Source of the DNA: a bacterium
GTDB lineage: Bacteria > Bacillota > DTU030 > DUMP01
Assembly: GCA_050951365.1 (NCBI GenBank)
Contig: JBMNIX010000011.1
Span: 8,845 to 72,844 of the forward strand
DNA: 64,000 bases
Reading direction: 5' to 3'
Positions 6,999-27,105 of this stretch are shown in pieces. The position numbers were made by a program, and so were the translations under genes. Under the pieces are notes generated by a model that worked only from the letters and a program-made list of their open reading frames with translations, was not told where the DNA came from and searched no databases. The stretch's first letter is position 1. Each line of letters starts with the position of its first letter.

Positions 6999-7721
6999 AT
7001 GCAAGTCAAGGAGGAACTCTGTGTCGGTTGCGGCCGCTGTGTGCTCTACTGTCCGGTTCAGGCTATCAGTCTCAGCGCAGACAGGAAACTGGCCGTTATT
7101 GACCAGGATGAGTGTGTCGAGTGCGGCGCCTGCCTCAGGAGTCCTGCATGCAAGACTGGTGCCCTTTATCAGCCAGAGCTAACCTGGCCCCGTGCTGTCC
7201 GCAGTCTTTTGAGCGATCCCCTTACTATCGCTCCTGAAAGCGGCATTAGCGGTCGCGGTACGGAAGAAATGAAGACCAACGATGTTACTGCGCGCTTCAA
7301 GCGCGGCTATGCTGGAGTAGCCGTGGAGGTGGGTCGGCCCCTCCTGGGCGCGCGCCTTAGGGATGTAGAAAAAGTGGCACAAGCCATCGCACGTTTTGGT
7401 GTTGAATTTGAAAAGATTAACCCCACCACCAGCCTTATGGCAGATCCCAAGACAGGCAAGTTCAAGGACGATCTCCTAGACGAAAAGGTGCTCTCGGCCA
7501 TTATTGAGTTTGCAGTGCCTATCGAGAAGCTACCTGACGTTCTTTACACTCTGGAACGAGTCTCCCACGAGATAGACACCATCTTTACTGTGGATGTATG
7601 CTCGCGCTGCAATCCAGACGGCTCCATTCCCCATGAGGAACTCCTGGCCCGCGGTAACTGGTGGTATTCCATTAACGTCAAGACCAACGTGGGCTTGGGC
7701 CGACCCCTAGCAGCAGAGTAG
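6999..7721 (+). CDS. 2x[4Fe-4S] ferredoxin domain fused to an uncharacterised ~170-aa domain (module copy 1, subunit A)
   Basis: Cys motifs CVGCGRCVLYCP and CVECGACLRSPAC, followed by a conserved domain (GRGTEEMKTNDVT, FGVEFE, KVLSAIIEF, KTNVGLGRP). A paralog lies at 24717..25427. RBS GGGGAGGACGAGG precedes the ATG. Confidence 0.8.
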   Translation: MQVKEELCVGCGRCVLYCPVQAISLSADRKLAVIDQDECVECGACLRSPACKTGALYQPELTWPRAVRSLLSDPLTIAPESGISGRGTEEMKTNDVTARFKRGYAGVAVEVGRPLLGARLRDVEKVAQAIARFGVEFEKINPTTSLMADPKTGKFKDDLLDEKVLSAIIEFAVPIEKLPDVLYTLERVSHEIDTIFTVDVCSRCNPDGSIPHEELLARGNWWYSINVKTNVGLGRPLAAE

Positions 7722-7754
7722 CAGGGAAATAAGCTAGGCTGAGGAGGTAACGAA

Positions 7755-8384
7755 ATGACACATACGCTGCACCGCATCGGCAGCTATAACGACTTGACCG
7801 AGGATTACGTGTTTCTCATGATGCCGTCCAAAGGGATCAACGTAGAAGGATCCGGTGAAAAACTGCGCACCTTTTTGGAAATGGCCTTGAGGCATAATCC
7901 GGTCATTATCGGTGACGCCCGCAAAGGCAACGCCTACCACCAGGGTGGCATTGACAACCTGCTGGCCAATATTGAAGATCAAGCAGTAGTGCAAGCGGTG
8001 TTTGACAATAAGGAAACGGTTGTTACCCTACTTAAAGAACTGAAAGAAGCTGACCTGGGCATGTCAGTGGTGGTTTCTGGCATCGCCACTGAGGTGCACG
8101 AGGCATGTAGGCAGGCGGGATTGGAGCGCCACACCGTAGAACACTCCCTGGGCCGCTGGGGCCGCACCGACAAACTACCGCCGCGGCAAATTCTGGAAAT
8201 AACCAACATGTGTGGACACTCCATGGTCCCGGCCCAACTGGTCTACAACATGCTGGCTGACATAAGAACAGGGCGCAGAACAGCCGAAAATGCGGCAGGA
8301 GAGCTGGCTAAGCCCTGTATGTGCGGTATCTTTAATACAAAACGGGCAGCCCGGCTCTTGGCTGCACTGGCAGAAGCTTTCTAG
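7755..8384 (+). CDS. uncharacterised Cys-containing protein, N-terminus MTHTLHR (module copy 1, subunit B)
   Basis: 209 aa, 33 nt after subunit A, with RBS GAGGAGG. Blocks shared with paralog 25440..26063: MTHTLHR, GSGEKL, HNPV.IGD, VVSG, EIT.MCGH, GRRTAE.A..ELA..C.CGIFN.KRA. I recognise no characterised family. Confidence 0.8.
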   Translation: MTHTLHRIGSYNDLTEDYVFLMMPSKGINVEGSGEKLRTFLEMALRHNPVIIGDARKGNAYHQGGIDNLLANIEDQAVVQAVFDNKETVVTLLKELKEADLGMSVVVSGIATEVHEACRQAGLERHTVEHSLGRWGRTDKLPPRQILEITNMCGHSMVPAQLVYNMLADIRTGRRTAENAAGELAKPCMCGIFNTKRAARLLAALAEAF

Positions 8385-8471
8385 AATAGGAACCTAACCA
8401 GAAAGAAGGTGGGAGTAACTAAGAAATCATTTTGCACCAGAAAAAGAAAGATAGATAGGAGGGGCATTCAC

Positions 8472-9464
8472 ATGCGGAAACGCACACTGGTATTAGTAGC
8501 CAGCCTCCTGGCACTAACACTTCTCGCCGGGTGTTCAGGGGGCCAACAACAGACCTCGCCTGGCGCTAATTATCCGGAAAAACCCATTAACTACGTGATC
8601 CCTTGGAGTCCAGGCGGTGGCAGCGACGTCATGGGGCGCATGGTGGCGGATATCATACAACAGAATAAGTTCCTGCCCCAACCCCTGGTAGTTGTAAACA
8701 AGCCAGGCGGTAGCGGCGCCGTGGGTATGAACGAAGTGGCACAGAAAAAGGGTGATCCCTACACCATTATCGGCGTAGTGTCAGGACAAATCAGTACACC
8801 CATCACCACTGGCGCTGAGGTCAAGGCCTCCACCTTTAAACCCATTGCAGCTTTAGCCCTGGATGAATTCTTTCTCTTGGTAAAACCCGAATCCGAGTTC
8901 CAAACGCTGCAGGACGTCATCGACTATGCCAAGGCCAACCCTGGTAAACTCACCATGGGCGGCACCGGTACCGGCTCTGAAGACCACATGTGCGCCGGCC
9001 TGTTGATGGACGCCGCCGGTATTCAAGTAGAGTATATCCCCTTTGATGGCGGCGGTGAGGTCATGAGCGCCCTCCTAGGCGGGCACGTACAGGTGGCCTG
9101 GGCCAATCCTTCAGAGTGTGCCTCTCAGCTAAAGGGAGGGCTGGTCAGGGTTCTGGGCGTCATGGCACCGGAGCGGACAAAAACCTATCCCGACATCCCA
9201 ACCTTTAAGGAACAGGGTGTAGATGCTGTCTTCCAGCAGATCCGCGCCATCTCTGGTTCGCCTGACATGCCCGACTACGCGGTAGAAGTAATAGGCGAAG
9301 CCCTTAAGAAGGTAAGTGAATCCGAACGCTGGCAGAAAGAATACATTGAGAAGAACGCCCTCACCTCCCGTTACCTTGGCCCGGAGGAGTACGGTCAGGC
9401 TATCGCAGAGGCTGAGAAACAGTACACTGAGATTCTCACTAACCTTGGTTTGGTCAAGAAGTAG
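8472..9464 (+). CDS. tctC: tripartite tricarboxylate transporter (TTT) substrate-binding protein, lipoprotein
   Basis: The signal peptide with lipobox LLAGCSG follows ATG 8472 (RBS GGAGGGG). The motif YPEKPINYVIPWSPGGGSDV is typical of the TctC/Bug family. Confidence 0.8.
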   Translation: MRKRTLVLVASLLALTLLAGCSGGQQQTSPGANYPEKPINYVIPWSPGGGSDVMGRMVADIIQQNKFLPQPLVVVNKPGGSGAVGMNEVAQKKGDPYTIIGVVSGQISTPITTGAEVKASTFKPIAALALDEFFLLVKPESEFQTLQDVIDYAKANPGKLTMGGTGTGSEDHMCAGLLMDAAGIQVEYIPFDGGGEVMSALLGGHVQVAWANPSECASQLKGGLVRVLGVMAPERTKTYPDIPTFKEQGVDAVFQQIRAISGSPDMPDYAVEVIGEALKKVSESERWQKEYIEKNALTSRYLGPEEYGQAIAEAEKQYTEILTNLGLVKK

Positions 9465-9566
9465 GAGCAAGATTAGCCGGTAGAGAGAAAGGAGTGGCTG
9501 CTGGCTTTTGATACACCACCGCCACAGCCCTCCTTTCACACACATCACCAACTGGAGGTTACAGCG

Positions 9567-10004
9567 ATGTCAGGCGACCGTATAGCGGGTTTATTAGGAA
9601 TGATCTGTGGACTATATTGGGGTGTGATGGGCTACAACTACGGCATCTGGGGCCAAACCGGACCAGCCAGCGGCTTCATTCCGGTGATCTTTGGTTCGCT
9701 TACTTTTGTTCTCAGTACTATACTCATCGGGCAAACATTTACGCGGGGCGGAATTAAGCTTAGCATCGGAGAGATACGAACTGTAGTCCTTATCTCTGTT
9801 TTTACGGGTACAGCCATCTTTCTCCTGAATAAACTGGGCACTATGCCTACTCTGGGGCTACTCATTCTTCTCTGGTTGCGCTTCCTCGAGCGTTATCCCT
9901 GGGCCGCAGTCATTAAAATCAGTGTGGGCACCATCGCAGTTGCCTATTTCGTGTTCGTGGTTTGGCTGCAAGTACCATTTCCTACAGGCTGGCTGGGCTT
10001 CTAA
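9567..10004 (+). CDS. tctB: TTT small membrane subunit
   Basis: 145-aa protein with 4 predicted TM segments, lying between the tctC-like and tctA-like genes. Confidence 0.6.
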   Translation: MSGDRIAGLLGMICGLYWGVMGYNYGIWGQTGPASGFIPVIFGSLTFVLSTILIGQTFTRGGIKLSIGEIRTVVLISVFTGTAIFLLNKLGTMPTLGLLILLWLRFLERYPWAAVIKISVGTIAVAYFVFVVWLQVPFPTGWLGF

Positions 10005-10022
10005 GGAAAGGCAGGGTCTAAC

Positions 10023-11546
10023 ATGGATATTCTCTCTAACCTAGTTACAGGTTTTGGCCAAGCACTGCTTCCTGTGAATATCTTCTTCGCCCTGGCAGGA
10101 GGAGTCATGGGGGTCATTGTCGGGGCTTTGCCCGGCCTTGGTTCCATTGCCGGTGTGGCACTCTTGCTCCCGCTCACCTTCAAACTCAATCCTACCTCAG
10201 CCATTATTATGCTGGCAGGCATCTACTATGGCAACATGTTTGGCGGCTCCATCAGTGCCATCCTCATTAATATCCCTGGGGATTCCCCGGCTGTCATGAC
10301 TGCCCTGGATGGTAACCAACTGGCTAAGCAGGGCCGCGCCGGGCAAGCCCTTTTTATGGCCTTTTCCGCCTCTTTCTTCGGTGGCCTCATCGGTATCATT
10401 ATTCTCACTGTTCTCGGTCCATTCTTGGCCTTTGTCGGCCTAAAGTTTGGCCCCCCTGAATTTGCTGCCCTTATCGTCCTGGCTTTAACCAGTATCGGTT
10501 GGCTCCTGGGGGACAACCCTATCAAAGGGGTCTTGGCCGGAGCAGTCGGACTTCTTATTGCCACCATCGGCGTCGATATGATCGAAGGTTTACCCCGCTT
10601 CACCTTTGGGTTAGTAGGCCTCTCATCCGGGGTACCCTTTATTCCCTTTGTCATTGGTCTCTTTGGGCTGGCACAGGTAGTACTCATGTTGGCCCATCCG
10701 GAAGAATTCAGGGCCGACGAAACGCAACCTTCTACCAGACTCTCCCTACGGAGCAGCCTGCCCAGTGTTAAAGATTGGGCCGCCAGTGCCTGGACCATCC
10801 TCAGAAGCGCTGTGTTAGGCTTTTACATCGGTCTACTACCAGGCTCTGGTGCTACCACCGCCGCCTTTTTATCTTATGTGGCCGAAAAGCGCTTAAGCAA
10901 GCACCCGGAACGCCTGGGCCAAGGTGCCATCGAGGGTGTAGCTGCTTCAGAGGCTGCTAATAATGCCGCTAGCATGGGTGCCTTCGCACCGCTCTTGTCT
11001 CTAGGCATTCCTGGTTCTGGGACCACCGCTATCCTTCTCGGTGGCCTCATGATGTGGGGCCTTACCCCTGGCCCGCTGCTCTTTAGAGAAGCGCCGGAGT
11101 TTGTCTGGGGTCTCATCGCCAGTATGTACGTGGGCAATCTCCTCGTGGCCATCACCTGTATTGTAGCTATTCCTGTCTTGGTTTATGTCCTGCGCGTTCC
11201 CCGCGCCGTGATGGCCCCGGTCATTGTTGTAATCTGTATCCTCGGTGCCTACAGTGTGAATAACAGCATCTTTGATCTTTGGGTGATGCTCTTCTCAGGT
11301 GTCCTCGGTTACTTCCTCAACCGGCTAAAATTTCCCATCCCAGCTATGGTGCTGTCCGTTGTCCTCGGGCCACGGCTCATGACTTCTATCCGACAGTCCT
11401 TTATGATGTCCCACGGTGCAGCCAGTATCTTCATCACACGCCCCATTTCCCTCACCCTGCTCCTACTGGCTGTCCTGCTTACCGCTGGCCCCGCTATTGC
11501 TGGCGTAATCAGGAAGCGTCGGGCCGCTTCGGCAACCGCAGAATAG
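10023..11546 (+). CDS. tctA: TTT large permease subunit
   Basis: 507-aa polytopic protein. The motifs GALPGLG, GGSISAILINIPG and LPGSGATTAAFLSY are typical of TctA. Confidence 0.8.
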   Translation: MDILSNLVTGFGQALLPVNIFFALAGGVMGVIVGALPGLGSIAGVALLLPLTFKLNPTSAIIMLAGIYYGNMFGGSISAILINIPGDSPAVMTALDGNQLAKQGRAGQALFMAFSASFFGGLIGIIILTVLGPFLAFVGLKFGPPEFAALIVLALTSIGWLLGDNPIKGVLAGAVGLLIATIGVDMIEGLPRFTFGLVGLSSGVPFIPFVIGLFGLAQVVLMLAHPEEFRADETQPSTRLSLRSSLPSVKDWAASAWTILRSAVLGFYIGLLPGSGATTAAFLSYVAEKRLSKHPERLGQGAIEGVAASEAANNAASMGAFAPLLSLGIPGSGTTAILLGGLMMWGLTPGPLLFREAPEFVWGLIASMYVGNLLVAITCIVAIPVLVYVLRVPRAVMAPVIVVICILGAYSVNNSIFDLWVMLFSGVLGYFLNRLKFPIPAMVLSVVLGPRLMTSIRQSFMMSHGAASIFITRPISLTLLLLAVLLTAGPAIAGVIRKRRAASATAE

Positions 11547-11567
11547 AGAAAGGGAGGAGGGGACAAA

Positions 11568-12446
11568 GTGCGCCTGGTACAATTCTTTCTAGACACCAAT
11601 GCCCTTAGGGTGGGACTGTGGCAGGAGGACGGCATACGCGACATAACGCTGCCTGATCAGGGACTTACCAACACCAACGCTTATCTCGGGAGAGCAGTGG
11701 ATCAGAAAAAGAGCCTGGCTCACGTCGTGGCCGAGGCTTGCCAGGGCGAAAACCTGCCGCTACTGGCCCGGGAGTCTGTACGGCTAACACTCCCCTTTTT
11801 CCCGGACGAGGTGTGGGGCTGCGGAGTCACCTATAAGAAAAGCATGGAGTTTAGGGCTGAGGAGCTCAGCGAACCAGAGAACATCTATGAACGTGTCTAC
11901 AAAGCGGAGCGACCTGAGACTTTTTTTAAGGCCACGACTGCGCGCTGCGTTGGGCCAGGCGAAGCCATTGGCAAACGGGCCGATTCCATCTTCACTGCGC
12001 CGGAGCCAGAGCTGGCCGCGGTAGTGGGACCAACAGGTGAGGTTTTGGGCTACACCCTGGCCAACGACGTTTCCGCCTGGGATATAGAGCGCGCTAATGC
12101 CCTCTACCTGCCCCAGAGCAAGATCTACGCCAAGTGCTGTGCCTTAGGGCCATTTCTTGTAAGTGCTGATGCAGTCCGGGATCCTTACACCATCACCATG
12201 TCCTGCCGCATCATAAGGCAGGGAAAGGTCCTCTTTACAGGCGAAGCCACCACCGCTAACCTCAAGCGCACTATACCAGAACTTATCGCTGCTGTGCAGC
12301 GCTCTAATGTGCTGCCTACCGTCACAGTTATCCTCACCGGCACAGGTATCATTGTCCCAGAGGATGCAGCCCTGGCAGTGGGAGACGTGGTGGAGATCAC
12401 GGCTAATGGTTTGGGTACTTTGATCAATACGGTGGAAGAAGTCTAG
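11568..12446 (+). CDS. fumarylacetoacetate hydrolase (FAH) family protein
   Basis: 292 aa. The C-terminal catalytic region (...GCGVTYKKS..., ...ELAAVVGPTGE..., LTGTGIIVP) resembles FAH/2-keto-4-pentenoate hydratase-type folds. GTG start with RBS GGGAGGAGGGG. Confidence 0.65.
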   Translation: MRLVQFFLDTNALRVGLWQEDGIRDITLPDQGLTNTNAYLGRAVDQKKSLAHVVAEACQGENLPLLARESVRLTLPFFPDEVWGCGVTYKKSMEFRAEELSEPENIYERVYKAERPETFFKATTARCVGPGEAIGKRADSIFTAPEPELAAVVGPTGEVLGYTLANDVSAWDIERANALYLPQSKIYAKCCALGPFLVSADAVRDPYTITMSCRIIRQGKVLFTGEATTANLKRTIPELIAAVQRSNVLPTVTVILTGTGIIVPEDAALAVGDVVEITANGLGTLINTVEEV

Positions 12447-12588
12447 CAGGGGGCGGGTCCATGGCCCGCCCCCTAGGGCGTTTTAGCTGCCCGTATTGGC
12501 TATTCAACTGGTAGGGCATAGACCTTATACATGTCCCAGCTTCAGATTCAGACCATCACAAGGCTTACCTCCACACTAACTGGCCTCG

Positions 12589-13563
12589 CTAGTATTGGTT
12601 GAACAACTCGGTCATCTCCTCATGATCTAGCCCTGCCCCGAGGCCAATCATCAAGAGCAGGCGAGCCTGGGGTCCAGAGAGGGCCCCACCGAAGATGACC
12701 CCTTCGCGAACCAAGGATGCTCCACCGCCAAGATAGCCATAGCGCGGGGCAACCCGCCCGTCCGGACTGCGAGAAACCATAACCACTACCAGGCCAGCGT
12801 CCCGGGCCTTTTTTATTCCCCAGTAAAACTCCTCGTTCACATTGCCCATCCCCACGCCAGAGACTACTATTCCCGCGGCACCAGTGGCTATAGAGGCCTC
12901 GATGTGGCGGGCATCCATGCCGGCGGTAAATACCACCAGATCTACCGGTTCTGTGATCCGGCTGACGGGGAGCCTTCTCAGGGGCGGCAGGTCACGCCAA
13001 TAGTGCACCCCGCTGCTGTCCACGGTACCCAAGAGCCCAGCCTCGCCCGAGGCAAAGGCCCGTAGGCTTGTAGTGTGTACCTTGCGCACACTGCGTGCAG
13101 GGTGGACCTCACCTGCAAAAGTTACCAGCGTTCCCCGCTCCCGGCTCTCCGGTGCTGCTGCTACTTGAAGGGCCGCTGCCAAGTTGGCCGGGCCATCCGG
13201 CCAGGGCTCTGACGCTGCCCGCTGGGCACCAGTTAAGACTACAGGCTTAGCTCCAGGCACTGTGACATCGAGAAAGAAGGCTGTCTCCTCCAGGGTTGAG
13301 GTACCATGGGTGACCACAACACCGTCCACCTTTTCTTCCGCCAGGATTTGGCGGAGGGAAAGTGATAGCGCCAGCATGTCTTGGGGCCGAAGGTAGGTAC
13401 TGTTGATCCGGGCAAAGTCCTCCACCTCAACCTCTACTCCAGGCGGAGGTTCCACCAGCACGTCCTCACCGCTCAAACCCGCGGCTAAACCGCCTAATTC
13501 TGGTTTGTACACCGTGGCAATGGTACCCCCGGTGGCTATGAGTTTGATCCTACGTCTTGTCAT
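12589..13563 (-). CDS. L-asparaginase (type I/II family)
   Basis: IKLIATGGTIATV (active-site Thr motif) and VVTHGTSTLEETAFFL are asparaginase signatures. ATG 13563 has RBS AAGGAGGG; the longer ORF-track N-terminus is unlikely to be real. Confidence 0.8.
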   Translation of the reverse strand: MTRRRIKLIATGGTIATVYKPELGGLAAGLSGEDVLVEPPPGVEVEVEDFARINSTYLRPQDMLALSLSLRQILAEEKVDGVVVTHGTSTLEETAFFLDVTVPGAKPVVLTGAQRAASEPWPDGPANLAAALQVAAAPESRERGTLVTFAGEVHPARSVRKVHTTSLRAFASGEAGLLGTVDSSGVHYWRDLPPLRRLPVSRITEPVDLVVFTAGMDARHIEASIATGAAGIVVSGVGMGNVNEEFYWGIKKARDAGLVVVMVSRSPDGRVAPRYGYLGGGASLVREGVIFGGALSGPQARLLLMIGLGAGLDHEEMTELFNQY

Positions 13564-13786
13564 GCTTGCGAACCCTCCTTGTGCCCTTCTGACAAATAAG
13601 AACGTTGAGTCCTTTTTCTTGATAAGAAGCCAACTTCCTGCTACCCTGTGTTGCACGTGGCAAGTCTTTTTCAAGTTGCTTCTTAGTCTCAGTAGCAAGA
13701 AGGAGTTCATTTCCGCTAAGTCAAATAAGGCTAGAGACATGATGGTTATTTCGACCAGAGGTTAGAACTAGAAAGGAGGATCCTAA

Positions 13787-15166
13787 GTGGCAGATCTAGC
13801 TGTAAGAAATGCTCGGGTTGTTACAGAGGAGGGGGTTTTTCTCGGGGGTATCGCCGTTCAAGAAGGTATGATTGTGGCTCTGGGGACAAATGAGAGCTTA
13901 CCTAGCGCAGAGACAGTTGTAGACGCAGAGAGGAACTATCTCCTCCCTGGTGGCGTGGATCCGCACGTTCATATCCGCTACCCCGGCGGGCCCCATCGGG
14001 AGACCTTTAGCACCGGAACAGCGGCCGCAGCCGCCGGTGGCATCACCACCATCATCGAGCATCCCATCTCCGCACCGCCTCCGTTCTCCAAAGAGATTCT
14101 CCTGAACAGAGTAGCCGCAGTCACAGAGCAGGCACTGGTAGACGTGGCCTTCTTCGGGGCGGCAGGCTATGACAAAGCAGCCTCTATCGGCGAACTGGCC
14201 TCGGCGGGTATTGTGGCTTACAAGACTTTCCTCCAGGCCGCACCAGAAGGACGGGAAAATGAATTCATTGGGCTCACCATGAAGGATAGTCACGAGCTCT
14301 ACGCAGGCCTCCGAGCAGTGGCTCCCACCGGACTCCCTCTGGCCGCCCACGCGGAAGACAACGACCTGGTTTCTGGCCTGGTGCAAGAATTTCGTGCCGC
14401 CGGTAAGGTCTCTCCACTGGACCATGCCCGTACGCGCCCGCCTGTCGCCGAGGTGCTATCGGTTGAGAGACTCATTCGCCTCGCCCGGGAGACAGGAGCT
14501 ACCTTATACCTGGTCCACATCTCCACCCCTGAGGCCGTAATGCTGGCCGACCAAGCCCGCAAGGCCGGACAACGCATCTTTATCGAGACCTGCCCCCAGT
14601 ACCTCTATCTCAGCGAGGAGGCTTTAATCCAACACGGTCCCTACGCCAAGTGTAACCCGCCACTTAGGACCAGGGCCGAAGTTGACGCCATGTGGCGCTT
14701 TGTCCAGGATGGCACCGTGGACACCATTGGCAGCGATCACAGCCCCTTTACCGCAGAGGAGAAGGAGAAGGGGCTAGAGAACATCTTTAACGCCCCCTCA
14801 GGCTTCCCCGGCCTTGAAACACGCCTTCCCCTTATGTTGACAGCCATAAAGGAAGGACGTATCTCCCTAGCACAGGCGGTGAATCTTCTTAGCACCAACC
14901 CCAGCCGCATCTTTGGCCTTTACCCGAGAAAAGGCACCATCAAAATTGGTGCCGATGCCGATCTCGCACTAGTCAACCTGGACGAACCCTTCACCCTTCA
15001 CCACAGTAATATGCTCACCAAGTCCCGTGACGCCAGCCGCGTGTACGATGGTTGGAAACTGTATGGCCGGGTTCTCAAGACCTTTGTACGTGGAAAACTC
15101 GTCTTCGACGAAGGCCGGATAGTCGCTGAGCCTGGCTGGGGCCAGTGGGTCACACCTGGCGAGTAA
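13787..15166 (+). CDS. cyclic amidohydrolase (allantoinase/hydantoinase/dihydroorotase superfamily)
   Basis: The metal motif GGVDPHVHIRYPG, then GTAAAAAGGITTIIEHP and a late GSDHSPF. Its 459-aa size is typical of allantoinase or dihydropyrimidinase. GTG start with RBS AAAGGAGGA. Confidence 0.75.
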   Translation: MADLAVRNARVVTEEGVFLGGIAVQEGMIVALGTNESLPSAETVVDAERNYLLPGGVDPHVHIRYPGGPHRETFSTGTAAAAAGGITTIIEHPISAPPPFSKEILLNRVAAVTEQALVDVAFFGAAGYDKAASIGELASAGIVAYKTFLQAAPEGRENEFIGLTMKDSHELYAGLRAVAPTGLPLAAHAEDNDLVSGLVQEFRAAGKVSPLDHARTRPPVAEVLSVERLIRLARETGATLYLVHISTPEAVMLADQARKAGQRIFIETCPQYLYLSEEALIQHGPYAKCNPPLRTRAEVDAMWRFVQDGTVDTIGSDHSPFTAEEKEKGLENIFNAPSGFPGLETRLPLMLTAIKEGRISLAQAVNLLSTNPSRIFGLYPRKGTIKIGADADLALVNLDEPFTLHHSNMLTKSRDASRVYDGWKLYGRVLKTFVRGKLVFDEGRIVAEPGWGQWVTPGE

Positions 15167-15175
15167 TTACGGAAA

Positions 15176-15217
15176 TAAAAAAAGGCGGACCGCCACAAAC
15201 GGTCTCGCCTTTTTTTG
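15176..15217. terminator. bidirectional rho-independent terminator
   Basis: An A-tract, then stem AGGCGGACCG / CGGTCtCGCCT, then a T7 tract. It lies between converging genes 13787..15166 (+) and 15218..15991 (-). Confidence 0.7.
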
Positions 15218-16816: not shown

Positions 16817-16831
16817 CCTTTCTTCGTTTCA

Positions 16832-18753: not shown

Positions 18754-18779
18754 CTCATCACCTCCCTGTGCTACGAGAT

Positions 18780-19682
18780 CTACTCCTTAAGCTTTGGATC
18801 CAGAATATCGCGAAGTCCGTCGCCCAGTAGGTTTAATCCCAATGCGAGCACCAGTATTGCCAGCCCAGTGTACGTGGTCAGATGCGGCGCCACCAGGATG
18901 TACTCGCGGCCCTTGGCCAACATAGTCCCCCACTCTGGCGAAGGCGGTTGAGCGCCCAGACCCAGAAAACCCAAGCCAGCTGCGGTGAGAATAGCTGAGC
19001 TAACGTTAAGGGTGCTCCAAACGATCAGAGGTGAGATGATGTTGGGTAAAATGTGCCACGTTATGATCCAAGTATCGTTAGCTCCCATGGCTCTAGCCGC
19101 CTCAATATACTCTTGGTTCTTGATTCCCAAAACCTCACCTCGGGCCAAACGCGCAAAAGCTGGGATAGTAAATACAGCAACAGCTATGACAGCATTCTGC
19201 AGATTGGGTCCCAGGATACTCACGATCACAATAGCCAAGAGAATACTGGGAAAAGCCATCAAAACATCAATGGCACGCATTAGTAAATTATCAAGTGTGC
19301 CGCCGTAGTAGCCTGCTATGATGCCGAGAGGTACACCAATGAGGGCAGCCAGGGCCACAGTTACCAATCCGACCATGAGTGAGATACGCGACCCGTAAAG
19401 AATTCGGCTGAAGATATCGCGCCCCAGCTCATCTGTACCCAGGAGGTGATCCCCACCCGGCTTCGCCAGGATAGCGCTGAAGTCTGGGGTGTAAGGGTCA
19501 TAGGGTGCAAGCCACGGCGTCAAAATCGCCACAATTATGCAGCTCAGCACAATAACGAGCCCGGCCACGGCAACAGGTCGCTTTTTAAAGCGATACCACT
19601 GCCGTGACAGTTCCCGGCGGGTGGCAGGGCTTAACCAAGCACGCCTCGCCGTGGGCTGCTGAGATGTCTGTACTTGAGGCAT
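18780..19682 (-). CDS. ABC peptide transporter permease (DppC/OppC-like)
   Basis: 300-aa permease with the N-terminal OppC-type region and the EAA-loop motif YIEAARAMGA. Confidence 0.8.
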   Translation of the reverse strand: MPQVQTSQQPTARRAWLSPATRRELSRQWYRFKKRPVAVAGLVIVLSCIIVAILTPWLAPYDPYTPDFSAILAKPGGDHLLGTDELGRDIFSRILYGSRISLMVGLVTVALAALIGVPLGIIAGYYGGTLDNLLMRAIDVLMAFPSILLAIVIVSILGPNLQNAVIAVAVFTIPAFARLARGEVLGIKNQEYIEAARAMGANDTWIITWHILPNIISPLIVWSTLNVSSAILTAAGLGFLGLGAQPPSPEWGTMLAKGREYILVAPHLTTYTGLAILVLALGLNLLGDGLRDILDPKLKE

Positions 19683-19703
19683 CAGAGTCTCCCCCTTTAT
19701 CCT

Positions 19704-20624
19704 CTAACTGTAACGAATCCGCGGGTTGACATACGCGTAAAGGAGGTCAACCAGTAGATTGATGATAACAAAGGATGCCGCTACCACTAAGATGGCTGCC
19801 TGCACTGTAGGAAAATCCCGTGCCTTTATGCTTTCCACCGCCAAGCGACCGATGCCCGGTAGAGCAAAAACCGTCTCAGTGATTACGGCACCGCCCAATT
19901 GATGGCCAAACTGGACACCAATAACTGTGATGACAGTGTTCATGGCGTTGCGCAGGGCGTGCTTAAAGATGATAACGCGCTCTGGCAGCCCCTGCGCTCT
20001 GGCCGTCAGAATATAATCCTGCCCCATCACTTCAAGCATACTGGACCGGGTCATACGCGCGATCATGGCCAAGGGCCGCGCAGCCAAGGTTAGTGCTGGC
20101 AAAACAATACCTGTCCAGGATTCAAGGCCCATCAGGGGGAACCACCCTAACCGTACCGAAAAGAAGAGCATCAACATAAGGCCCAGATAAAAGGGCGTGA
20201 TGGAGATACCGATCAAGGCTATCACCATCGTAGCATTGTCGTAAATGGAGTAGCGCCTGGTAGCGGAAATTATGCCGGACGTCAAACCTATAATGGTAGC
20301 AATAACAATCGATATTACGCTCAGTCTTATGGTGTTTAGAAACCGGAAACCAATCTCCGTGGACACTGGCCGCCCGGTACGGATGGACGTCCCAAAATCA
20401 CCTCTAAGGGCTTTACTGGCCCAAGCTATATACTGTTCATGCAGCGGTCTATCAAGTCCAAGGCTACGCCGTACGTTCTCGATATCCTCCGGTTGTGCTC
20501 CTTCGCCGGCAATGACCTCTGCAGGATCACCGGGCATCATATGGATCATGGAAAAGATGAGGATTGATACCACCAGGAGCAGTGGTATCAGCATGAGGAG
20601 ACGGCGGAGGGCATATTTGAGCAT
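19704..20624 (-). CDS. ABC peptide transporter permease (DppB/OppB-like)
   Basis: MLKYALRRLLMLIPLLLVVSILIF... is the canonical DppB/OppB N-terminus; 306 aa. Confidence 0.8.
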   Translation of the reverse strand: MLKYALRRLLMLIPLLLVVSILIFSMIHMMPGDPAEVIAGEGAQPEDIENVRRSLGLDRPLHEQYIAWASKALRGDFGTSIRTGRPVSTEIGFRFLNTIRLSVISIVIATIIGLTSGIISATRRYSIYDNATMVIALIGISITPFYLGLMLMLFFSVRLGWFPLMGLESWTGIVLPALTLAARPLAMIARMTRSSMLEVMGQDYILTARAQGLPERVIIFKHALRNAMNTVITVIGVQFGHQLGGAVITETVFALPGIGRLAVESIKARDFPTVQAAILVVAASFVIINLLVDLLYAYVNPRIRYS

Positions 20625-20720
20625 ACTGTCACCCTCTTTGAGATATTTGAGAAAGGGGCCCCTGGCTGTATTGCAATGCGGCCAGGGGCCATATATACAT
20701 TTTGCAGGAGCTTGATCTAG

Positions 20721-22292
20721 CTACTGCTTCTTGGCATAGCGCAGGTCAACAAACTCGTTGGGCCAGATAAACTCTCCGCTGACGCTCTTATTCTTAGCGA
20801 CAATCTGTTTTTCGTAGTACAGAGAAGCCCACGGCAACTGTTCTTGTATCTTCTCCTGCATCTTCTGCAACACTTCAAGTCGCTTCTCCTGGTCCACTGT
20901 GCGCCGCTGCTCGGCCACCAGCGCATCAATCTCTGGATCGGACATGAAAGAGTAGTTGAGAGAACCACCTGTCACCCAACAAATCTGTGCAGTAAAGTCG
21001 AGATCGCCAGCAGGGGAACCTTTACCCACCATGAAGAGCTGAGTTTCCTCACCCTTCTTAAGCATGTCAGAGTAAATTGACCAGTCTAAAGTCTGCAGAT
21101 CAGCCTTGATACCAACCTGTGCCAGTTGGGCCTGAATAGCCTCTGCCACCTGTTTGTCCATGTTGTATCGGCCAAATGGCGCGTGGAACTTGATCTCAAG
21201 ACCGTTGGGATAACCGGCTTCGGCCAGGAGCTGTTTCGCTTTCTCAGGGTCATAGTCGTAGGTGGGAAGATCCTTGGATGCACCAGGGATGCTGGTCGCC
21301 TCAGGGCCAATTGCTATCTCAGCCGTTCCGAGGAGAATGTTGTCGATAATGGCCTGACGATCAATGGCATGATTCAAGGCCTGCCGCACCCGGACATCGT
21401 CAAAGGGTTTATTCTTGAAGTTCATTCCAAGATAGATGGTACGGAAACCAGGAATAAGGTCAACCTGCAGATTGGGGGCCTTTTCTAATTGCTCAATCTG
21501 GAAGGGCGGCACGTTACTGATAATATCCACCTCGCCCGTCTGCAGGGCCATGACACGAGTGGTGTTTTCCGGGATTACCTTGAAGACGATGGTCTTGGTA
21601 GGCGGCTTTTCGCCCCAGTAGTCCTCGAAACGTTCAAACACCATCTTCTCACCCGGCAGCCAATCCTTTAACACATAGGGGCCAGTACCGGCTGGATGCG
21701 TTGCATAGTCCTTGCCGTACTCGTCAATGGCCTTGGGGCTGAGAATCGCGGCATTGTAAGTGGCCAACTGCGAAAGGAACGGCCCAAAGGGTTCTTCTGT
21801 TGTAAGGGCAATAGTGTAGGGATCCACTATCTCCATATCAGTGATCATTGACAGGATGGAGCGACGCGGTGAACCTAAGTCTGGGTCCAGAATCCGTTCG
21901 AAAGATTTCTTCACTGCCTCGGCATTGAAGTCCGCACCATCATGGAACTTAATGCCTTCTCTGAGCTTGAAGGTCCAGGTTTTTCCATCAGGAGAGGTCT
22001 CCCAGCTCTCGGCTAATCTGCCGACAATGTCCATGTTCTTATCCCAGGTCACCAAGGTCTCATGAACGTGCATGACAGCATTGGCGGTGGGGACGTTATC
22101 CACCATCTGTGGATCCATTGTCCGCGCATCGACACCAACACCGTAAGTCAAGGTATCACTGACTGTGCCTGCTGCAACGCCACCACCTGGCTGATCAGCA
22201 GGAGTTTGCTGCTGGCCACCACCGGAGGAACACCCGGCAAGCAGTAGGATCATAACCATGGCTAAGGCAAACCACTTAGCAGCATGTTTCAT
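20721..22292 (-). CDS. ABC peptide transporter substrate-binding lipoprotein (family 5 SBP)
   Basis: ATG 22292 (RBS GAGGAGGG) gives MKHAAKWFALAMVMILLLAGCSS, which contains a lipobox. The body resembles DppA/OppA family 5 binding proteins. Confidence 0.8.
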   Translation of the reverse strand: MKHAAKWFALAMVMILLLAGCSSGGGQQQTPADQPGGGVAAGTVSDTLTYGVGVDARTMDPQMVDNVPTANAVMHVHETLVTWDKNMDIVGRLAESWETSPDGKTWTFKLREGIKFHDGADFNAEAVKKSFERILDPDLGSPRRSILSMITDMEIVDPYTIALTTEEPFGPFLSQLATYNAAILSPKAIDEYGKDYATHPAGTGPYVLKDWLPGEKMVFERFEDYWGEKPPTKTIVFKVIPENTTRVMALQTGEVDIISNVPPFQIEQLEKAPNLQVDLIPGFRTIYLGMNFKNKPFDDVRVRQALNHAIDRQAIIDNILLGTAEIAIGPEATSIPGASKDLPTYDYDPEKAKQLLAEAGYPNGLEIKFHAPFGRYNMDKQVAEAIQAQLAQVGIKADLQTLDWSIYSDMLKKGEETQLFMVGKGSPAGDLDFTAQICWVTGGSLNYSFMSDPEIDALVAEQRRTVDQEKRLEVLQKMQEKIQEQLPWASLYYEKQIVAKNKSVSGEFIWPNEFVDLRYAKKQ

Positions 22293-22335
22293 TTTGGCTG
22301 TTACCCTCCTCGAAAATGTTACTTGTGTATCGCGG

Positions 22336-23106
22336 TCACTCTTCGGCTCCGGCCGCAATTTCTGCCTGCCGATTCACCTCCTTTCGTTTCGCACCTACTT
22401 TCAAATCGCTCAACTCTTGACTACGTTTCGTATCGAGACGTAGATTTGCAAGGTGGGCCTCTAGTCTCTGCACCGCTAGCTCGGGGTCACGGGCAGCAAT
22501 GGCTTCATATATCTTTTTGTGTTCATGGATGGACTGCTGGCGTTGCTCTTCCGTTCTGGGCACATTACGATAGAGTTCGTTGATGAGCTGGGTTAGGGCC
22601 TCGAAAAGAGGAGTCGCAAAGGTATTATGGGCGCATATCGCCACACCGAGATGAAAGTTTGCCCCAGACTGAACCAATTCTTCTACCGTTCCTGAATGGG
22701 CAACCTTTTCCACCAGCTCGCGCAGCATTTCCAAATCTTTTTCATCCGCACGTAGTGCCGCAAGGCGCACCAAACCACGTTCTATAATCAGCCTCAGCTC
22801 GGTGAGCGCTTCAAGAGGCCTTTCTTCAAAATTGAACAAGAACTCGAGCTGCGCCTTTATGCCACGCTGGAGATCGTTGCAGACAAAACAACCCTTCCCC
22901 TGCACAACCTCAATGATTCCTTTTTCTTCTAAAGCCCGCAGCGCCTCCCGGACAGATGATCGTCCCACACCTAGTTGCTCAGCTAGCTCTTTTTCAGTAG
23001 GAAGTCGACTACCTGGTTCCAAGTTGCCGCCTATTATCAGTTGTTCGATCTCGTTTCTTACCAACTGGGCAAGACCAGTGGGTCGACCAACTGGCTTTAG
23101 GCGCAT
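22336..23106 (-). CDS. GntR-family (FadR-subfamily) transcriptional regulator
   Basis: The winged-HTH LPTEKELAEQLGVGRSSVREALRALEEKGII is followed by an all-helical FCD-like C-domain. It is the first gene of the minus-strand transporter operon and is divergent from 23332..27105. Confidence 0.8.
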   Translation of the reverse strand: MRLKPVGRPTGLAQLVRNEIEQLIIGGNLEPGSRLPTEKELAEQLGVGRSSVREALRALEEKGIIEVVQGKGCFVCNDLQRGIKAQLEFLFNFEERPLEALTELRLIIERGLVRLAALRADEKDLEMLRELVEKVAHSGTVEELVQSGANFHLGVAICAHNTFATPLFEALTQLINELYRNVPRTEEQRQQSIHEHKKIYEAIAARDPELAVQRLEAHLANLRLDTKRSQELSDLKVGAKRKEVNRQAEIAAGAEE

Positions 23107-23120
23107 ACACCAACCCCCCT

Positions 23121-23146: not shown

Positions 23147-23287
23147 TCCCGAATTGAGAGTTATATTCGCCACGTGAGCTTAAATTCCCTCTCCAAAATC
23201 CAAAACAATTCCTATAAACTTTTTTTCTTTAGGCTAGTACCAGCAGGAAAACGGGACCCACTGGCCAATATATCACTTAAGATCATG

Positions 23288-23300
23288 TCATCAGATATGC
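23288..23300. promoter_or_regulatory. second copy of the TCATCAGATATGC motif, upstream of the M20 peptidase operon
   Basis: Exact 13-nt repeat of 23134-23146, about 30 nt upstream of ATG 23332. Confidence 0.4.
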
Positions 23301-23331
23301 CTAAAAGTTTCAAGCACTGAGGAGGGAACAC

Positions 23332-24699
23332 ATGAGTCTCGCTCACGTTTACAGTTACATTGATAGCCAGCGTGAAGTATTCCTGGAAGATCTTTTCCAA
23401 CTGCTACGGCAAAGGAGTATCAGCACACAGGACGATGGCGTCCAGGAATGTGCTGAGCTTCTTGCGCGCCAGATGCGTGAAGCTGGAATTGAAGCCACTG
23501 TCATGCCGACACCACGCCACCCAATAGTCTACGGCGAGGTTGGCCCCGACGGGGCACCAACCATCCTGATCTACGGCCATTACGACGTGCAGCCGCCTGA
23601 ACCGCTGGAACTCTGGGAGAGTGATCCGTTCAACCCGGTTATCCGCGACGGAAAGATTTTCGCTCGGGGCGCCTCCGACAACAAGGGGCAGCTCTTTGCC
23701 CACGTGAAGGCCGTTCAAGCCTACCTTAAGGTTTTGGGCAAGCTTCCTCTCAAGGTAAAGTTTATCTTTGAGGGTGAGGAAGAGATTTCCAGCCCTAGCT
23801 TGGAACCCTTTGTGGCCAGTCACAAAGACTTGCTCAAGACAGACGTCTGTATCTTTTCCGATAGTCACGTCCAGGAAAATGGTCGTCCTTTAGTGGTGCT
23901 AGGACTTAAAGGTATGCTCTACGTACAGATCACACTTAAAGGTGCCAACCGCGACCTACACTCCATGCGAGCCGCTGCAGTTCCGAGCCCGGTCTGGCGG
24001 CTGATCCATCTCCTATCTACTCTTCGTGGCGAGGACGGCCTTGTACGCATCCCTGGATTCTACGATGATGTTCGCCCCCTCCTGCCTGAGGAAATCGCCG
24101 CCGTTGAGGCCATACCCTGCGATAAGGACGCTCTGTGCGCTGATCTTGGCATCCCAGCTCTGCTGCAAAATCGCAATGGCGACGATTACTACAAGAACAT
24201 GATTTTTGAGCCCACCTGCAATATCGCTGGCCTTAAGGCAGGTTACCAGGGAGTTGGTGCTAAGACTGTGCTCCCCTGCACCGCCACAGCCAAACTGGAC
24301 CTGCGCCTGGTGCCAGACCAGAAACCTGAACGGATACTAGAGTTACTAAAAGACCACCTGGCTAAGAACGGTTACGCCGACGCCGAGATCGAACCACTTG
24401 GCTTCTTGACACCATCACGCACCCCAATCACCCATCCACTTGTGGAGGTAGCACGGGACGCGGTGGCCGACGCCTACGGTGTAGACCCATACATTTATCC
24501 TGGTATCGGCGGTGCTGGCCCGAACTACATCTTTGAGAAACACCTCGGCGTGCCCTGCATAACCATCCCCTTCGCTGCTGCTGACCAGAACAATCACGCC
24601 CCCAACGAAAGTATGATCGTGGACGGCTATTTCAACGGTATTAAGACCGGAGCCTCCCTTATCCACCAGATTGCCGCCTTCTACGCCGCGAAAAAATAA
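23332..24699 (+). CDS. M20-family metallopeptidase (dipeptidase-like)
   Basis: ILIYGHYDVQPPEPLELWESDPF...RGASDNKGQL...FEGEEEISSPSL are M20A dipeptidase motifs; 455 aa. Confidence 0.8.
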   Translation: MSLAHVYSYIDSQREVFLEDLFQLLRQRSISTQDDGVQECAELLARQMREAGIEATVMPTPRHPIVYGEVGPDGAPTILIYGHYDVQPPEPLELWESDPFNPVIRDGKIFARGASDNKGQLFAHVKAVQAYLKVLGKLPLKVKFIFEGEEEISSPSLEPFVASHKDLLKTDVCIFSDSHVQENGRPLVVLGLKGMLYVQITLKGANRDLHSMRAAAVPSPVWRLIHLLSTLRGEDGLVRIPGFYDDVRPLLPEEIAAVEAIPCDKDALCADLGIPALLQNRNGDDYYKNMIFEPTCNIAGLKAGYQGVGAKTVLPCTATAKLDLRLVPDQKPERILELLKDHLAKNGYADAEIEPLGFLTPSRTPITHPLVEVARDAVADAYGVDPYIYPGIGGAGPNYIFEKHLGVPCITIPFAAADQNNHAPNESMIVDGYFNGIKTGASLIHQIAAFYAAKK

Positions 24700-24716
24700 A
24701 TTCGAGGTGAAAAAAG

Positions 24717-25427
24717 ATGTTAGTTGATGAAACAAAATGTGTGGCCTGTGGTAATTGTATTGATTACTGCCCTATGAATGCCATCTCTTTGACCGCAGAG
24801 TGTGCCGCTGTGGATCAAGCAGAGTGCGTGGAATGTGGCGTCTGCCTTCGCTCGGAGTGCTGCCCCACCGGAGCCCTCTACCGTCCAGAGCTTAACTACC
24901 CGCGGGACATCGCCTGCTTCTTCTCGGACCCAGAGGCTACACACCCCTCTACTGATGTGCCTGGACGTGGCACGGAAGAGATGAAAACTAACGAGGTAAC
25001 TGGACGCTTCCCGCCTGGCATGGCCGCGATCGCAATTGAACTGGGGCGACCTGGCATTGGAACGCGCTTCACTGATGTGGAAAAGGTAGCACGCGCCATG
25101 GCTGAGTTCGGCGTGGAGTTCGAGCCACAAAACCCCGTCACCGCTCTCATGATAGACAAGCGAGCAGGTACACTCCCTGATGATCTAAAGCCTGTTAAGG
25201 TTCTCTCGGCCATTGTTGAGTTTGGTGCACCACTGGAAAAGGTGCCAGCCATTCTTCAGCGTCTGAAAGAGGTAGAAGGAGAACTGGAAACCGTTTTTAG
25301 CCTGGATCTGGCTGCCCGTGTTCCGGAGGATGGTTCTCTCCCCTTTGCGGGGCTAGAACTCCCCTACCCGCTTTCCATCAACGGCAAGACCAACGTCGGC
25401 CTGGGTAAACCACGCTTTCGGGAGTAG
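24717..25427 (+). CDS. 2x[4Fe-4S] ferredoxin domain fused to an uncharacterised domain (module copy 2, subunit A)
   Basis: CVACGNCIDYCP and CVECGVCLRSECC, then GRGTEEMKTNEVT, FGVEFE, KVLSAIVEF, KTNVGLGKP. Collinear paralog of 6999..7721. Confidence 0.8.
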   Translation: MLVDETKCVACGNCIDYCPMNAISLTAECAAVDQAECVECGVCLRSECCPTGALYRPELNYPRDIACFFSDPEATHPSTDVPGRGTEEMKTNEVTGRFPPGMAAIAIELGRPGIGTRFTDVEKVARAMAEFGVEFEPQNPVTALMIDKRAGTLPDDLKPVKVLSAIVEFGAPLEKVPAILQRLKEVEGELETVFSLDLAARVPEDGSLPFAGLELPYPLSINGKTNVGLGKPRFRE

Positions 25428-25439
25428 GAGGTTACAGCC

Positions 25440-26063
25440 ATGACACACACACTACACCGTCAAGGGACTGCAGAAAACCTTGCCCATGACTTTTGCGTCC
25501 TGGCCATTTCCGCTCAAGGGATCAACAGCGCCGGTTCAGGCGAAAAGCTGCAGGCAATAAAAGAAATCTTTTTAAAGCACAACCCTGTAAACATCGGTGA
25601 CATTAAGCGCGGCAATATGTACAACCCTAGCACGGAGCACGTAATGGCCGCAACCCAAGACGGTACCGTGGTTCATGCCGTCTACCGTGACCGGGAGACC
25701 TTGATTGCAGTGCTGCGAGACTTAAAAGACGCCGACACCGGCATCTCCATTGTCGTCTCGGGACTTTTCGATCACGTAGGAGAATGTTGCCAGCAGGCGG
25801 GACTAAAACCCCACACCATTGAGTACTCACTAGGGGTTCACGGTGCCGTGGAGCGCCTGCCGGAGCGAAGCATTACTGAAATAACCACCATGTGCGGCCA
25901 CGGGCAGGTCTCCTTTAACCTAGTCCGGCGGATGGTACGAGAAATCGAAGCTGGCCGGAGAACAGCTGAGGACGCCGGAAAAGAACTCGCCCGCCAGTGC
26001 ATCTGCGGTATCTTTAACCCGAAGCGGGCGGAAGAACTACTACTGAAACTAGCTTCAAAGTAA
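25440..26063 (+). CDS. uncharacterised Cys-containing MTHTLHR protein (module copy 2, subunit B)
   Basis: 207 aa, 12 nt after subunit A. Collinear paralog of 7755..8384, with conserved EITTMCGH and CICGIFNPKRA. Confidence 0.8.
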   Translation: MTHTLHRQGTAENLAHDFCVLAISAQGINSAGSGEKLQAIKEIFLKHNPVNIGDIKRGNMYNPSTEHVMAATQDGTVVHAVYRDRETLIAVLRDLKDADTGISIVVSGLFDHVGECCQQAGLKPHTIEYSLGVHGAVERLPERSITEITTMCGHGQVSFNLVRRMVREIEAGRRTAEDAGKELARQCICGIFNPKRAEELLLKLASK

Positions 26064-26118
26064 CCTTTTAGGACAGCCATGATCAAGCGTAGAAACTCGG
26101 TGCAAAGGAGTGAGGCAA

Positions 26119-27105
26119 GTGACTGTGGTAACCAAGGCGGCGGTTCTCAAGGGCCCATATGACATCGAGCTTACCGAGCGGGAACTTGTCTGCGGCGAAA
26201 CCGAGGTCATCGTGAAGAATCACCTAGTTGGCATCTGTGGTTCCGACAAGAACTTTTACCGTGGCCAGTTGCCCCCCAAGACAGCTGAGTTCCGCCAAGA
26301 ACCTGGCTTCCCTTTCCTCCTAGGCCATGAAAGTGGCGGCACCGTGGTAGAGGTGGGTTCTCGTGTCCACGAATACAAGGTTGGCGACAAGGTCATGGCC
26401 TTTGGCTGGAACAACAACCTGGCTGAGTACTTTAAGGCTCCGGTTGAGGAGGTACAACTTGTCCCGGAAGGCCTGGACATGGACCTGGCCAGCCTGGGTG
26501 AACCCATCGGCTGTGCAATGTTTGCAGGCTTAGAAGCAGGAGTAAAGTTGGGTGACACGGTGGCCGTGTTCGGCGCTGGTTTCGCCGGGCAGGTGATCGC
26601 CCAGTGTGCTCGGGCCGCTGGAGCCTATCGCGTAGTGGTTATCGACGTTTGCACTGGCAAGCTTCAGCTGGCCAAGCAATTGGGAGCTCACGTGGCGGTT
26701 AACGCGGCAACTGACGATCCTGTCCAAGTGATAAAGGATCTCACTCACGGACACGGTGCCGACATCGTGGTGGAGGCAGCAGGCACAGAAACAGCCATCA
26801 ACCAGGCCACTCAGGCCCTATGCCACGGCGGAAAGTTTGTTTTCTACAGCTGGGTGACCACCCCAGTACGGCTGGACATTTCACGCTGGCATGACGATGG
26901 CTTTACCTTTGTGAACGCCTGCCTGGTGCACCACAGCCGTGAAGAACGCCAGGTGTGGGCCCCGCGGGCCCTGCGTCCTGTGATCCAAGGGCTGGTTAAG
27001 ATCCATCCTCTCATCACCCACGAGTTCAAGGTGGAAGAGATTAAAGAAGCCTTCGCTTTCGTCGCCCAGGACGAGACGGCGGTGAAGGTAGTCTTAAGAC
27101 CCTAG
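26119..27105 (+). CDS. Zn-dependent medium-chain alcohol/polyol dehydrogenase
   Basis: GICGSD, GHESGGTVVEVG and GAGFAGQV (Rossmann) motifs. GTG 26119 is well spaced from RBS AAAGGAG; GTG 26110 is the alternative start. Confidence 0.8.
   Translation: MTVVTKAAVLKGPYDIELTERELVCGETEVIVKNHLVGICGSDKNFYRGQLPPKTAEFRQEPGFPFLLGHESGGTVVEVGSRVHEYKVGDKVMAFGWNNNLAEYFKAPVEEVQLVPEGLDMDLASLGEPIGCAMFAGLEAGVKLGDTVAVFGAGFAGQVIAQCARAAGAYRVVVIDVCTGKLQLAKQLGAHVAVNAATDDPVQVIKDLTHGHGADIVVEAAGTETAINQATQALCHGGKFVFYSWVTTPVRLDISRWHDDGFTFVNACLVHHSREERQVWAPRALRPVIQGLVKIHPLITHEFKVEEIKEAFAFVAQDETAVKVVLRP

Follow-up and report, generated by a model that had tools for sequence, protein, structure and literature searches.

The described systems closest to the genes considered here are hydantoinase and allantoinase clusters, in which a cyclic amidohydrolase is accompanied by an N-carbamoylase (M20 or CN_hydrolase), a racemase or permease, and an IclR or GntR regulator; Weimberg-type sugar-acid operons (transporter, dehydratase, KdaD, semialdehyde dehydrogenase); the multi-subunit Fe-S systems LutABC and LldEFG; and IspH and IspG, which are ferredoxin-fed three-Cys [4Fe-4S] reductases. 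The locus compared with them is positions 6999-27105 of a 64-kb window (the whole stretch of DNA analysed, whose numbering is used for all coordinates given without a contig) of a Bacillota assembly (G000, hereafter the host genome; 2.0 Mb, 16 contigs, 90.7% complete). It carries two copies of a module of two adjacent genes, modA and modB (modAB), among uptake and hydrolase genes. Gene calls came from an open reading frame (ORF) listing and from Pfam and NCBIfam scans of the window proteins. The region was compared with G001, a complete genome from a sister genus of the same family, and with module loci of other genomes (n = 79 for neighbour counts, n = 72 for transporters within four ORFs).

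The region is probably a composite nutrient-scavenging neighbourhood of five independent units, with repeated cassettes in which modAB is one cytoplasmic Fe-S enzyme doing a redox step. modAB is an uncharacterised family, and the rest of the region is ordinary; no description of the modAB module was found in the literature.

Sequence and predicted structure of modA and modB

The window held two module copies, as the initial annotation had it, with modA1 and modA2 54% identical and modB1 and modB2 50% identical. In a 126-sequence alignment, C8, C11, C14, C18, C39, C42, C45 and C51 of modA were invariant. They lie in two CxxCxxCxxxC(P) motifs, as in a 2x[4Fe-4S] ferredoxin domain, and Fer4 families matched. 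Beyond the ferredoxin domain, modA had the invariant motifs GRGTEEMKTN and KTNVGLGRP. In modB, C153, C188, C190, H155 and H126 were invariant, and the N-terminus MTHTLHR was nearly so. A natural modB-modA fusion (P0387) matched across the whole of modA (E 5e-36), and a modB-Fer4_11 fusion (P0250) also exists; both fusions support a physical Fe-S complex of modA and modB.

AlphaFold (AF2) models had pLDDT of 92.6 (modB) and 90.7 (modA). Foldseek against the PDB gave no match at E<=0.001 for either protein. Profile searches of the PDB gave nothing for modB and the ferredoxin domain only for modA, and in the Pfam and NCBIfam copies searched neither protein matched a family beyond that domain. One homolog bears the public label of a DUF362 protein; this was rejected for modA, as PF04015 was not matched and the profile comparison with true DUF362 aligned the Fer4 insert only. 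Homology of the C-terminal domain of modA to modB was also rejected (hhalign probability 0.5%).

In the enzyme proposed here, electrons would travel between ferredoxin and the substrate site by way of the two clusters of modA; at the substrate site a further cluster would be bound by the three invariant modB Cys, and the pair would carry out a ferredoxin-coupled step on an imported acid. The redox step (e.g. reduction or reductive dehydroxylation) would act on a hydroxy, oxo or amino acid that is imported or released by hydrolysis.

Both proteins showed weak subdomain resemblance to PII, SbtB, ACT and YkoF-type folds (Foldseek E>0.001). These ligand-binding folds were the best resemblances obtained and, with the several loci whose operon holds a transporter and modAB only, would suit a non-enzyme, redox-sensing, PII/SbtB-like accessory of TRAP or tripartite tricarboxylate transporter (TTT) importers that gates uptake by the ferredoxin pool. 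Such a role is nevertheless very unlikely: all these matches had E>0.001 and TM (query) <0.33, which points to a generic beta-alpha-beta unit, the many invariant polar residues suggest a catalytic site, and some copies have no transporter but do have enzymes (porGDAB, CN_hydrolase).

Copies, spread and neighbours of the module

By whole-genome tblastn, the host genome has eight modA-modB pairs, seven intact and one decayed, with modB directly after modA in every case; nine modB matches were found in G001. The eighth host pair (C15:122578-123936) is a decayed paralog: its matches are fragmented, and TGA and TAG stops interrupt the frame. The contexts of the seven intact pairs were:

TRAP DctQM and aldehyde:ferredoxin oxidoreductase (AFOR)
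TctCBA and FAH (window copy 1)
Dpp, M20 and Zn-ADH (window copy 2)
CN_hydrolase and FMN_dh
porGDAB
sigma-54 regulator, Fer4-Ldh_2, PdxA, aminotransferase, TctCBA and racemase
TctCBA, M29 and two M20 genes

Replacement of the OFOR delta subunit by modA at the porGAB-modAB locus was rejected, as an 87-aa delta gene is present there.

Homologs in public protein sets numbered thousands, all annotated as hypothetical or 4Fe-4S binding. Searched with a profile, 1.84 billion representative proteins yielded 888 clusters (50% identity), nearly all matching from profile residue 1, and 497 module stretches were detected when genomes of 185,579 species were scanned. Hosts were Bacillota, Thermodesulfobacteriota, Dehalococcoidia and Synergistota, with a few in other groups; Sporomusa termitida, Blautia hominis KB1, Desulfosarcina widdelii and Desulfotruncus arcticus are carriers in culture. 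Those lineages are generally regarded as anaerobes.

Of the four TctA genes in the host genome, three lay within 3 kb of a module. The linkage exceeds chance: for ~12 TTT or TRAP membrane genes and 3 kb on each side, the probability that at least 4 of 7 modules fall so near them at random is ~1e-4. In other genomes, TRAP, TTT or ABC genes lay within four ORFs of the module at at least 40 of the 72 loci (crude ORF calling), often arranged as DctPQM-modAB or modAB-TctCBA. Ferredoxin-linked AFOR or OFOR genes were frequent neighbours. The neighbour counts over 79 loci were:

GntR, 26
HIBADH-like dehydrogenase, 25
392-aa amidohydrolase of the Cc2672 carboxypeptidase/prolidase type, 23
DctP, 22; DctM, 21
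TctC, 19 (+7); TctA, 16
ABC ATPases, 13
PanB-like, 12
FAH, 9
putative cyclase, 8; AFOR, 8
PdxA, 7
RraA-like aldolase, 6; SDR, 6
Zn-ADH, 5; TPP enzyme with CoA-transferases, 5

The constant partner of the module is a binding-protein-dependent importer; the other partners vary between loci and comprise ferredoxin-linked oxidoreductases and enzymes in the metabolism of hydroxy, oxo and amino acids. In the modB tree, the host paralogs fell in at least four deep clades, with modB1 and modB2 in different ones; modB1 grouped with TTT and FAH loci of relatives, and transporter type switched many times inside clades. A repeated cassette would be the organising principle, with an uptake system followed by a hydrolase or lyase and then by modAB, and each modAB paralog may be tuned to the substrate of its own cassette. 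More tentatively, modAB may represent an unrecognised class of ferredoxin-coupled Fe-S enzyme (e.g. a flavin-free reductive dehydroxylase or reductase). It would supply the core step shared by anaerobic catabolic cassettes that go with TRAP, TTT or ABC importers, and would have multiplied into paralogs specific for different substrates (7-9 per genome in this family; hundreds of clusters in at least four phyla).

The neighbours also bear on a non-redox function, in which modAB would be an Fe-S hydro-lyase that dehydrates an imported hydroxy or sugar acid, the missing first step ahead of the KdaD-like FAH enzyme. The typical neighbours KdaD-like FAH, KduI, RraA-like aldolase, PanB-like, HIBADH, SDR, Zn-ADH and PdxA are of sugar-acid type and usually accompany a dehydratase, yet none was annotated, and a nearby AFOR could oxidise the resulting semialdehyde. 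Three invariant Cys, as in modB, occur in three-Cys Lewis-acid clusters, and the two-subunit Fe-S serine, tartrate and fumarate hydratases are analogous. A hydro-lyase is rather unlikely all the same, given that it would need neither the strictly conserved 2x[4Fe-4S] domain nor the Fer4_11 fusion, that known Fe-S dehydratases resemble modAB neither in sequence nor in fold, and that an IlvD/Edd dehydratase co-occurs at one locus.

An analogy with nicotinate fermentation (enamidase, Hgd and a ferredoxin-dependent reductase), considered for the recurrent amidohydrolase and HIBADH neighbours, found no support: the 392-aa amidohydrolase belongs to the Cc2672 arginine-carboxypeptidase/prolidase type, and HIBADH resembles tartronate-semialdehyde reductase as closely as Hgd. 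At five Thermodesulfobacteriota loci (L046, L049, L058, L062 and L065), FAH, GntR, HIBADH and amidohydrolase genes were divergent from DctPQM-modAB-PanB-like. Anaerobic catabolism of pantothenate or pantoate is plausible for PanB-linked loci, as suggested by an N-acyl-amino-acid-type amidohydrolase with a PanB homolog; it does not apply to the window copies. Pantoate is a known ligand of some TRAP binding proteins (PMC5812351). At L083, L098 and L103 the module lay between a TPP enzyme of oxalyl-CoA-decarboxylase-like architecture and two family-III CoA-transferases, with an AFOR gene upstream at L103.

Gene content of the region and the ring-opening question

The genes of 6999-27105 were as follows (coordinates, strand, product):

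6999-7721, +, modA1; 240 aa, N-terminal 2x[4Fe-4S] ferredoxin domain and a ~180-aa domain, Pfam match Fer4 only
7755-8384, +, modB1; 209 aa, without Pfam or NCBIfam match
8409-9464, +, TctC (PF03401)
9567-10004, +, TctB (PF07331)
10023-11546, +, TctA (PF01970)
11568-12446, +, FAH-family enzyme (PF01557); last gene of unit 1
12589-13740, -, L-asparaginase-family gene (PF00710 and PF17763); unit 2
13787-15166, +, AllB-like allantoinase/hydantoinase-type cyclic amidohydrolase (TIGR03178); unit 3
15218-15991, -, creatininase-family amidohydrolase 1, intact (PF02633, 226 bits); last gene of unit 4
16041-16816, -, creatininase-family paralog 2, frameshifted, halves in different frames
16832-22358, -, five genes of an Opp/Dpp-type peptide ABC importer (Pfam: two ATPases, two permeases, SBP_bac_5 binding protein; DppA at 20721-22358)
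22336-23106, -, GntR/FCD regulator (PF00392 and PF07729); first gene of unit 4, divergent from the M20 operon
23332-24699, +, M20 metallopeptidase (PRK06446/PRK08201 above cut-off); first gene of unit 5
24717-25427, +, modA2; modA1 paralog with Fer4 domain
25440-26063, +, modB2; modB1 paralog
26110-27105, +, Zn-dependent medium-chain dehydrogenase (Zn-ADH; Pfam), PDB relatives polyol/threonine dehydrogenase-like; last gene of unit 5

These genes would form five units: modA1-modB1-tctCBA-KdaD-like FAH (unit 1, +); asparaginase alone (unit 2, -); the AllB-like cyclic amidohydrolase alone (unit 3, +); GntR-dppABCDF-creatininase 2 (broken)-creatininase 1 (unit 4, -); and M20 peptidase-modA2-modB2-Zn-ADH, divergent from the GntR gene (unit 5, +). 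A terminator-like hairpin followed FAH (12467-12480), and a bidirectional hairpin lay between AllB and creatininase 1 (15187-15205).

Pfam and NCBIfam largely bore out the gene list of the initial annotation, including the five-gene peptide ABC importer and TctCBA, whose three consecutive genes are a complete TTT set; the GntR gene had gone unlisted. Its description of the region as uptake and C-N-cleaving genes held insofar as uptake systems and amide hydrolases are dense there, and failed for FAH, whose PDB relative belongs to sugar-acid chemistry. Both creatininase paralogs were present, the second of them broken.

The sole PDB relative of the FAH protein was 2q18, a 2-keto-3-deoxy-D-arabinonate dehydratase (KdaD; E 4e-66), and by this criterion the protein appears closest to that sugar-acid dehydratase, not to a C-N hydrolase. 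Met60 of the long ORF (~13563) is the most likely start of the asparaginase, which scored under every NCBIfam cut-off. The AllB-like protein narrowly passed the TIGR03178 allantoinase model (370.9 bits vs a cut-off of 357.85) and was under the cut-off of other allantoinase and of dihydropyrimidinase models; its nearest relatives were at most 69% identical and carry the PGAP name allantoinase AllB. Creatininase 1 fell far short of the equivalog model TIGR04448 (115.6 bits vs a cut-off of 235), a score for the intact copy only, the frameshifted creatininase 2 not being scorable that way; creatininase 1 was also under the MftE, IolN and ArfB cut-offs. Creatininase 2 had two 1-nt insertions, 13 nt apart, relative to an intact, 87%-identical ortholog in G001, and is a probable pseudogene or assembly error. 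No creatininase-family genes other than these two were found genome-wide. The nearest PDB relative of the M20 protein was the Sulfolobus carboxypeptidase Sso-CP2 (E 2e-90), followed by CNDP dipeptidases. The protein is predicted to be of the carboxypeptidase/dipeptidase type and not an N-carbamoylase, which fits the divergent Dpp importer.

Synteny with G001 extended over modAB-TctCBA-FAH, over the creatininase-2 ortholog, Dpp and GntR, and over M20-modAB. Proteins of units 1, 4 and 5 were mostly 77-88% identical to G001 at the amino acid level (range 50-88%; TctB 50%, GntR 61%, FAH 70%), and the ABC importer orthologs were 77-84% identical with their order kept. The asparaginase, AllB-like and creatininase-1 genes were missing from the syntenic region, the lineage-specific stretch being 12589-15991 only; in their place after FAH, G001 had a further module copy and then the Zn-ADH ortholog, relocated, which follows a module copy in G001 as in the window. 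Neither an asparaginase ortholog nor a creatininase-1 ortholog was found in G001. Its AllB ortholog (69% identity) was 1.3 Mb distant, clustered with IclR, Amidohydro_3, SSF permease and M20/M28 genes, and the AllB-M20/M28 pairing recurred in two other genomes, one of which adds IclR and an SSF permease. Given the absence of the trio from the G001 region and the position of the AllB ortholog, the trio appears to be a lineage-specific juxtaposition, with the cyclic amidohydrolase parted from its usual partners. Units 1, 4 and 5 would have been inherited vertically, and the block of three genes inserted or retained in this lineage only.

These comparisons bear on the proposal, made in the initial annotation, that the 20 kb form one nitrogen-compound island with a hydantoin/creatinine-type ring-opening pathway, in which the module supplies an N-carbamoylase, sarcosine or N-methylhydantoin step. 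The cyclic amidohydrolase, both creatininase-family genes, the asparaginase and the M20 gene do lie within 12 kb. The canonical partners were missing from the window, as had been stated, and Hydantoinase_B (PF02538) was not found in the whole 90.7%-complete genome. No carbamoylase, racemase or SSF permease gene adjoined the AllB-like gene in the window, and no N-carbamoyl or allantoate amidohydrolase (M20 AmaB/AllC or CN_hydrolase) lay beside it, the only window M20 being Sso-CP2/CNDP-like; the best host match to the M20/M28 partner of AllB in G001 was 40% identical, on contig C1. The partners of a creatinine route (Hydantoinase_A/B, or creatinase with sarcosine oxidase) were not found either, sarcosine oxidase not having been searched for. 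The single Creatinase_N match was a 375-aa protein on contig C9, a domain also matched in 13 of 14 control genomes.

A single ring-opening pathway did not stand: the genes are in five units on alternating strands, the trio is unconserved and scattered in G001 with units 1, 4 and 5 in synteny, and the AllB ortholog of G001 has its own canonical partners 1.3 Mb off, which leaves the pathway unsupported. AllB orthologs elsewhere have M20/M28, SSF and IclR partners of their own. Nor is the module likely to fill the carbamoylase gap, being an Fe-S protein pair without hydrolase signature; AllB-like and asparaginase genes each occurred at 0/79 module loci and creatininase at 1/79. Base composition was ordinary too: the tetranucleotide distance of 6999-27105 was at the 35th percentile of the 20-kb windows of the genome, and its GC (0.539 vs 0.538 for the genome) at the 48th, with the asparaginase/AllB/creatininase-1 sub-block likewise unremarkable. 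With composition typical, and the region not absent as a unit from G001, neither sign of a horizontally acquired island was seen. Together with the creatininase score far under the equivalog cut-off, these results make the one-island proposal highly improbable; it is largely refuted by comparative genomics, and the resemblance of creatininase plus hydantoinase to such a pathway is coincidental.

Several points weigh against the reading of the region as independent units with modAB as a redox enzyme of repeated cassettes. No flavin or nucleotide-binding motif was found in modAB, and the three-Cys site of modB could hold Zn or a non-redox cluster. The probability given above for the linkage of modules to TTT or TRAP genes treats the paralogous cassettes of one genome as independent of each other, which they are not. 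With the same crude ORF calling, a recognised transporter within four ORFs was absent at 32 of the 72 loci. The boundaries of the five units are drawn from strand layout, short intergenic gaps and the two hairpins, and counts from the promoter and terminator scan were overall not above those of shuffles. Creatininase 2, AFOR and two further AllB-like copies are broken, and the neighbourhood may be partly decaying or the assembly error-prone.

The AFOR gene is split by an in-frame TAG at window 719-721, where a 99.8%-identical G001 gene has Trp (DSAGAGTWAPIF vs DSAGAGT*APIF); given that Trp, the TAG is a nonsense change or base-call error, not recoding. The two extra AllB-like copies (C5:1005-2370 and C13:97516-98888; 62-71% identical to the G001 ortholog) directly follow a TRAP DctM gene, and each is frameshifted. 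An aminotransferase gene beside module m6 (C15:76470-77685) is split into two ORFs, and a Pyr_redox gene beside module m4 (C10:115067-115942) lacks its N-terminal part. These and the other broken genes suggest ongoing gene decay or assembly indel errors.

The block C11:7081-11122, which overlaps window 1-2278 and holds module copy m1, an HTH_8 gene and AFOR, stood out by its GC of 66%, which puts it in the genome's top percentile, and by its tetranucleotide distance (99.7th percentile). Its proteins were 95-100% identical to G001 vs ~80% for neighbouring orthologs, G001 has two copies of the m1-type module, and the host genome has an istA/istB gene pair of IS21 2.3 kb upstream of the block. 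The block looks like a recent horizontal transfer from a high-GC donor. rRNA as the source of the high GC of window 1-3000 was rejected: Rfam matches were three tRNAs only, and the AFOR-containing block is of foreign composition.

The region is an ordinary, perhaps partly decaying catabolic neighbourhood, and its value is in the embedded modAB pair, a family predicted with high confidence, without detectable structural relative, and tied to TRAP and TTT importers in anaerobes. Because TRAP and TTT binding proteins can be screened for ligands, each cassette offers a route to the substrate and then to the chemistry. The putative modAB Fe-S enzyme may be a common step of anaerobic organic-acid turnover.

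Comparison with known systems

The window resembles hydantoinase and allantoinase clusters in having an AllB/hydantoinase-type cyclic amidohydrolase with other amide hydrolases close by, and differs from them in the lack of an adjoining carbamoylase, racemase or SSF permease. In G001 and the two other genomes, the AllB orthologs are accompanied by M20/M28 genes, and in two of these three genomes by SSF and IclR as well.

Unit 1 shares with Weimberg-type operons a carboxylate importer and a KdaD-like FAH, with an AFOR gene ~5 kb upstream and in relatives too. It departs from them at the start of the operon, where modAB takes the first two places, and no sugar-acid dehydratase or dehydrogenase could be recognised in it.

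With IspH and IspG, modAB has no sequence or fold similarity, and its ferredoxin is fused to a separate subunit; the analogy is functional only, in that a cluster having an open iron site could be bound by the three invariant modB Cys, with electron input of the ferredoxin type. In contrast to LutABC and LldEFG, CCG and LUD domains were undetected in modA and modB, which are of a different family. The likeness to those systems is one of organisation: multi-subunit Fe-S proteins with a Fer4 dicluster subunit, encoded beside genes for hydroxy-acid uptake and catabolism.

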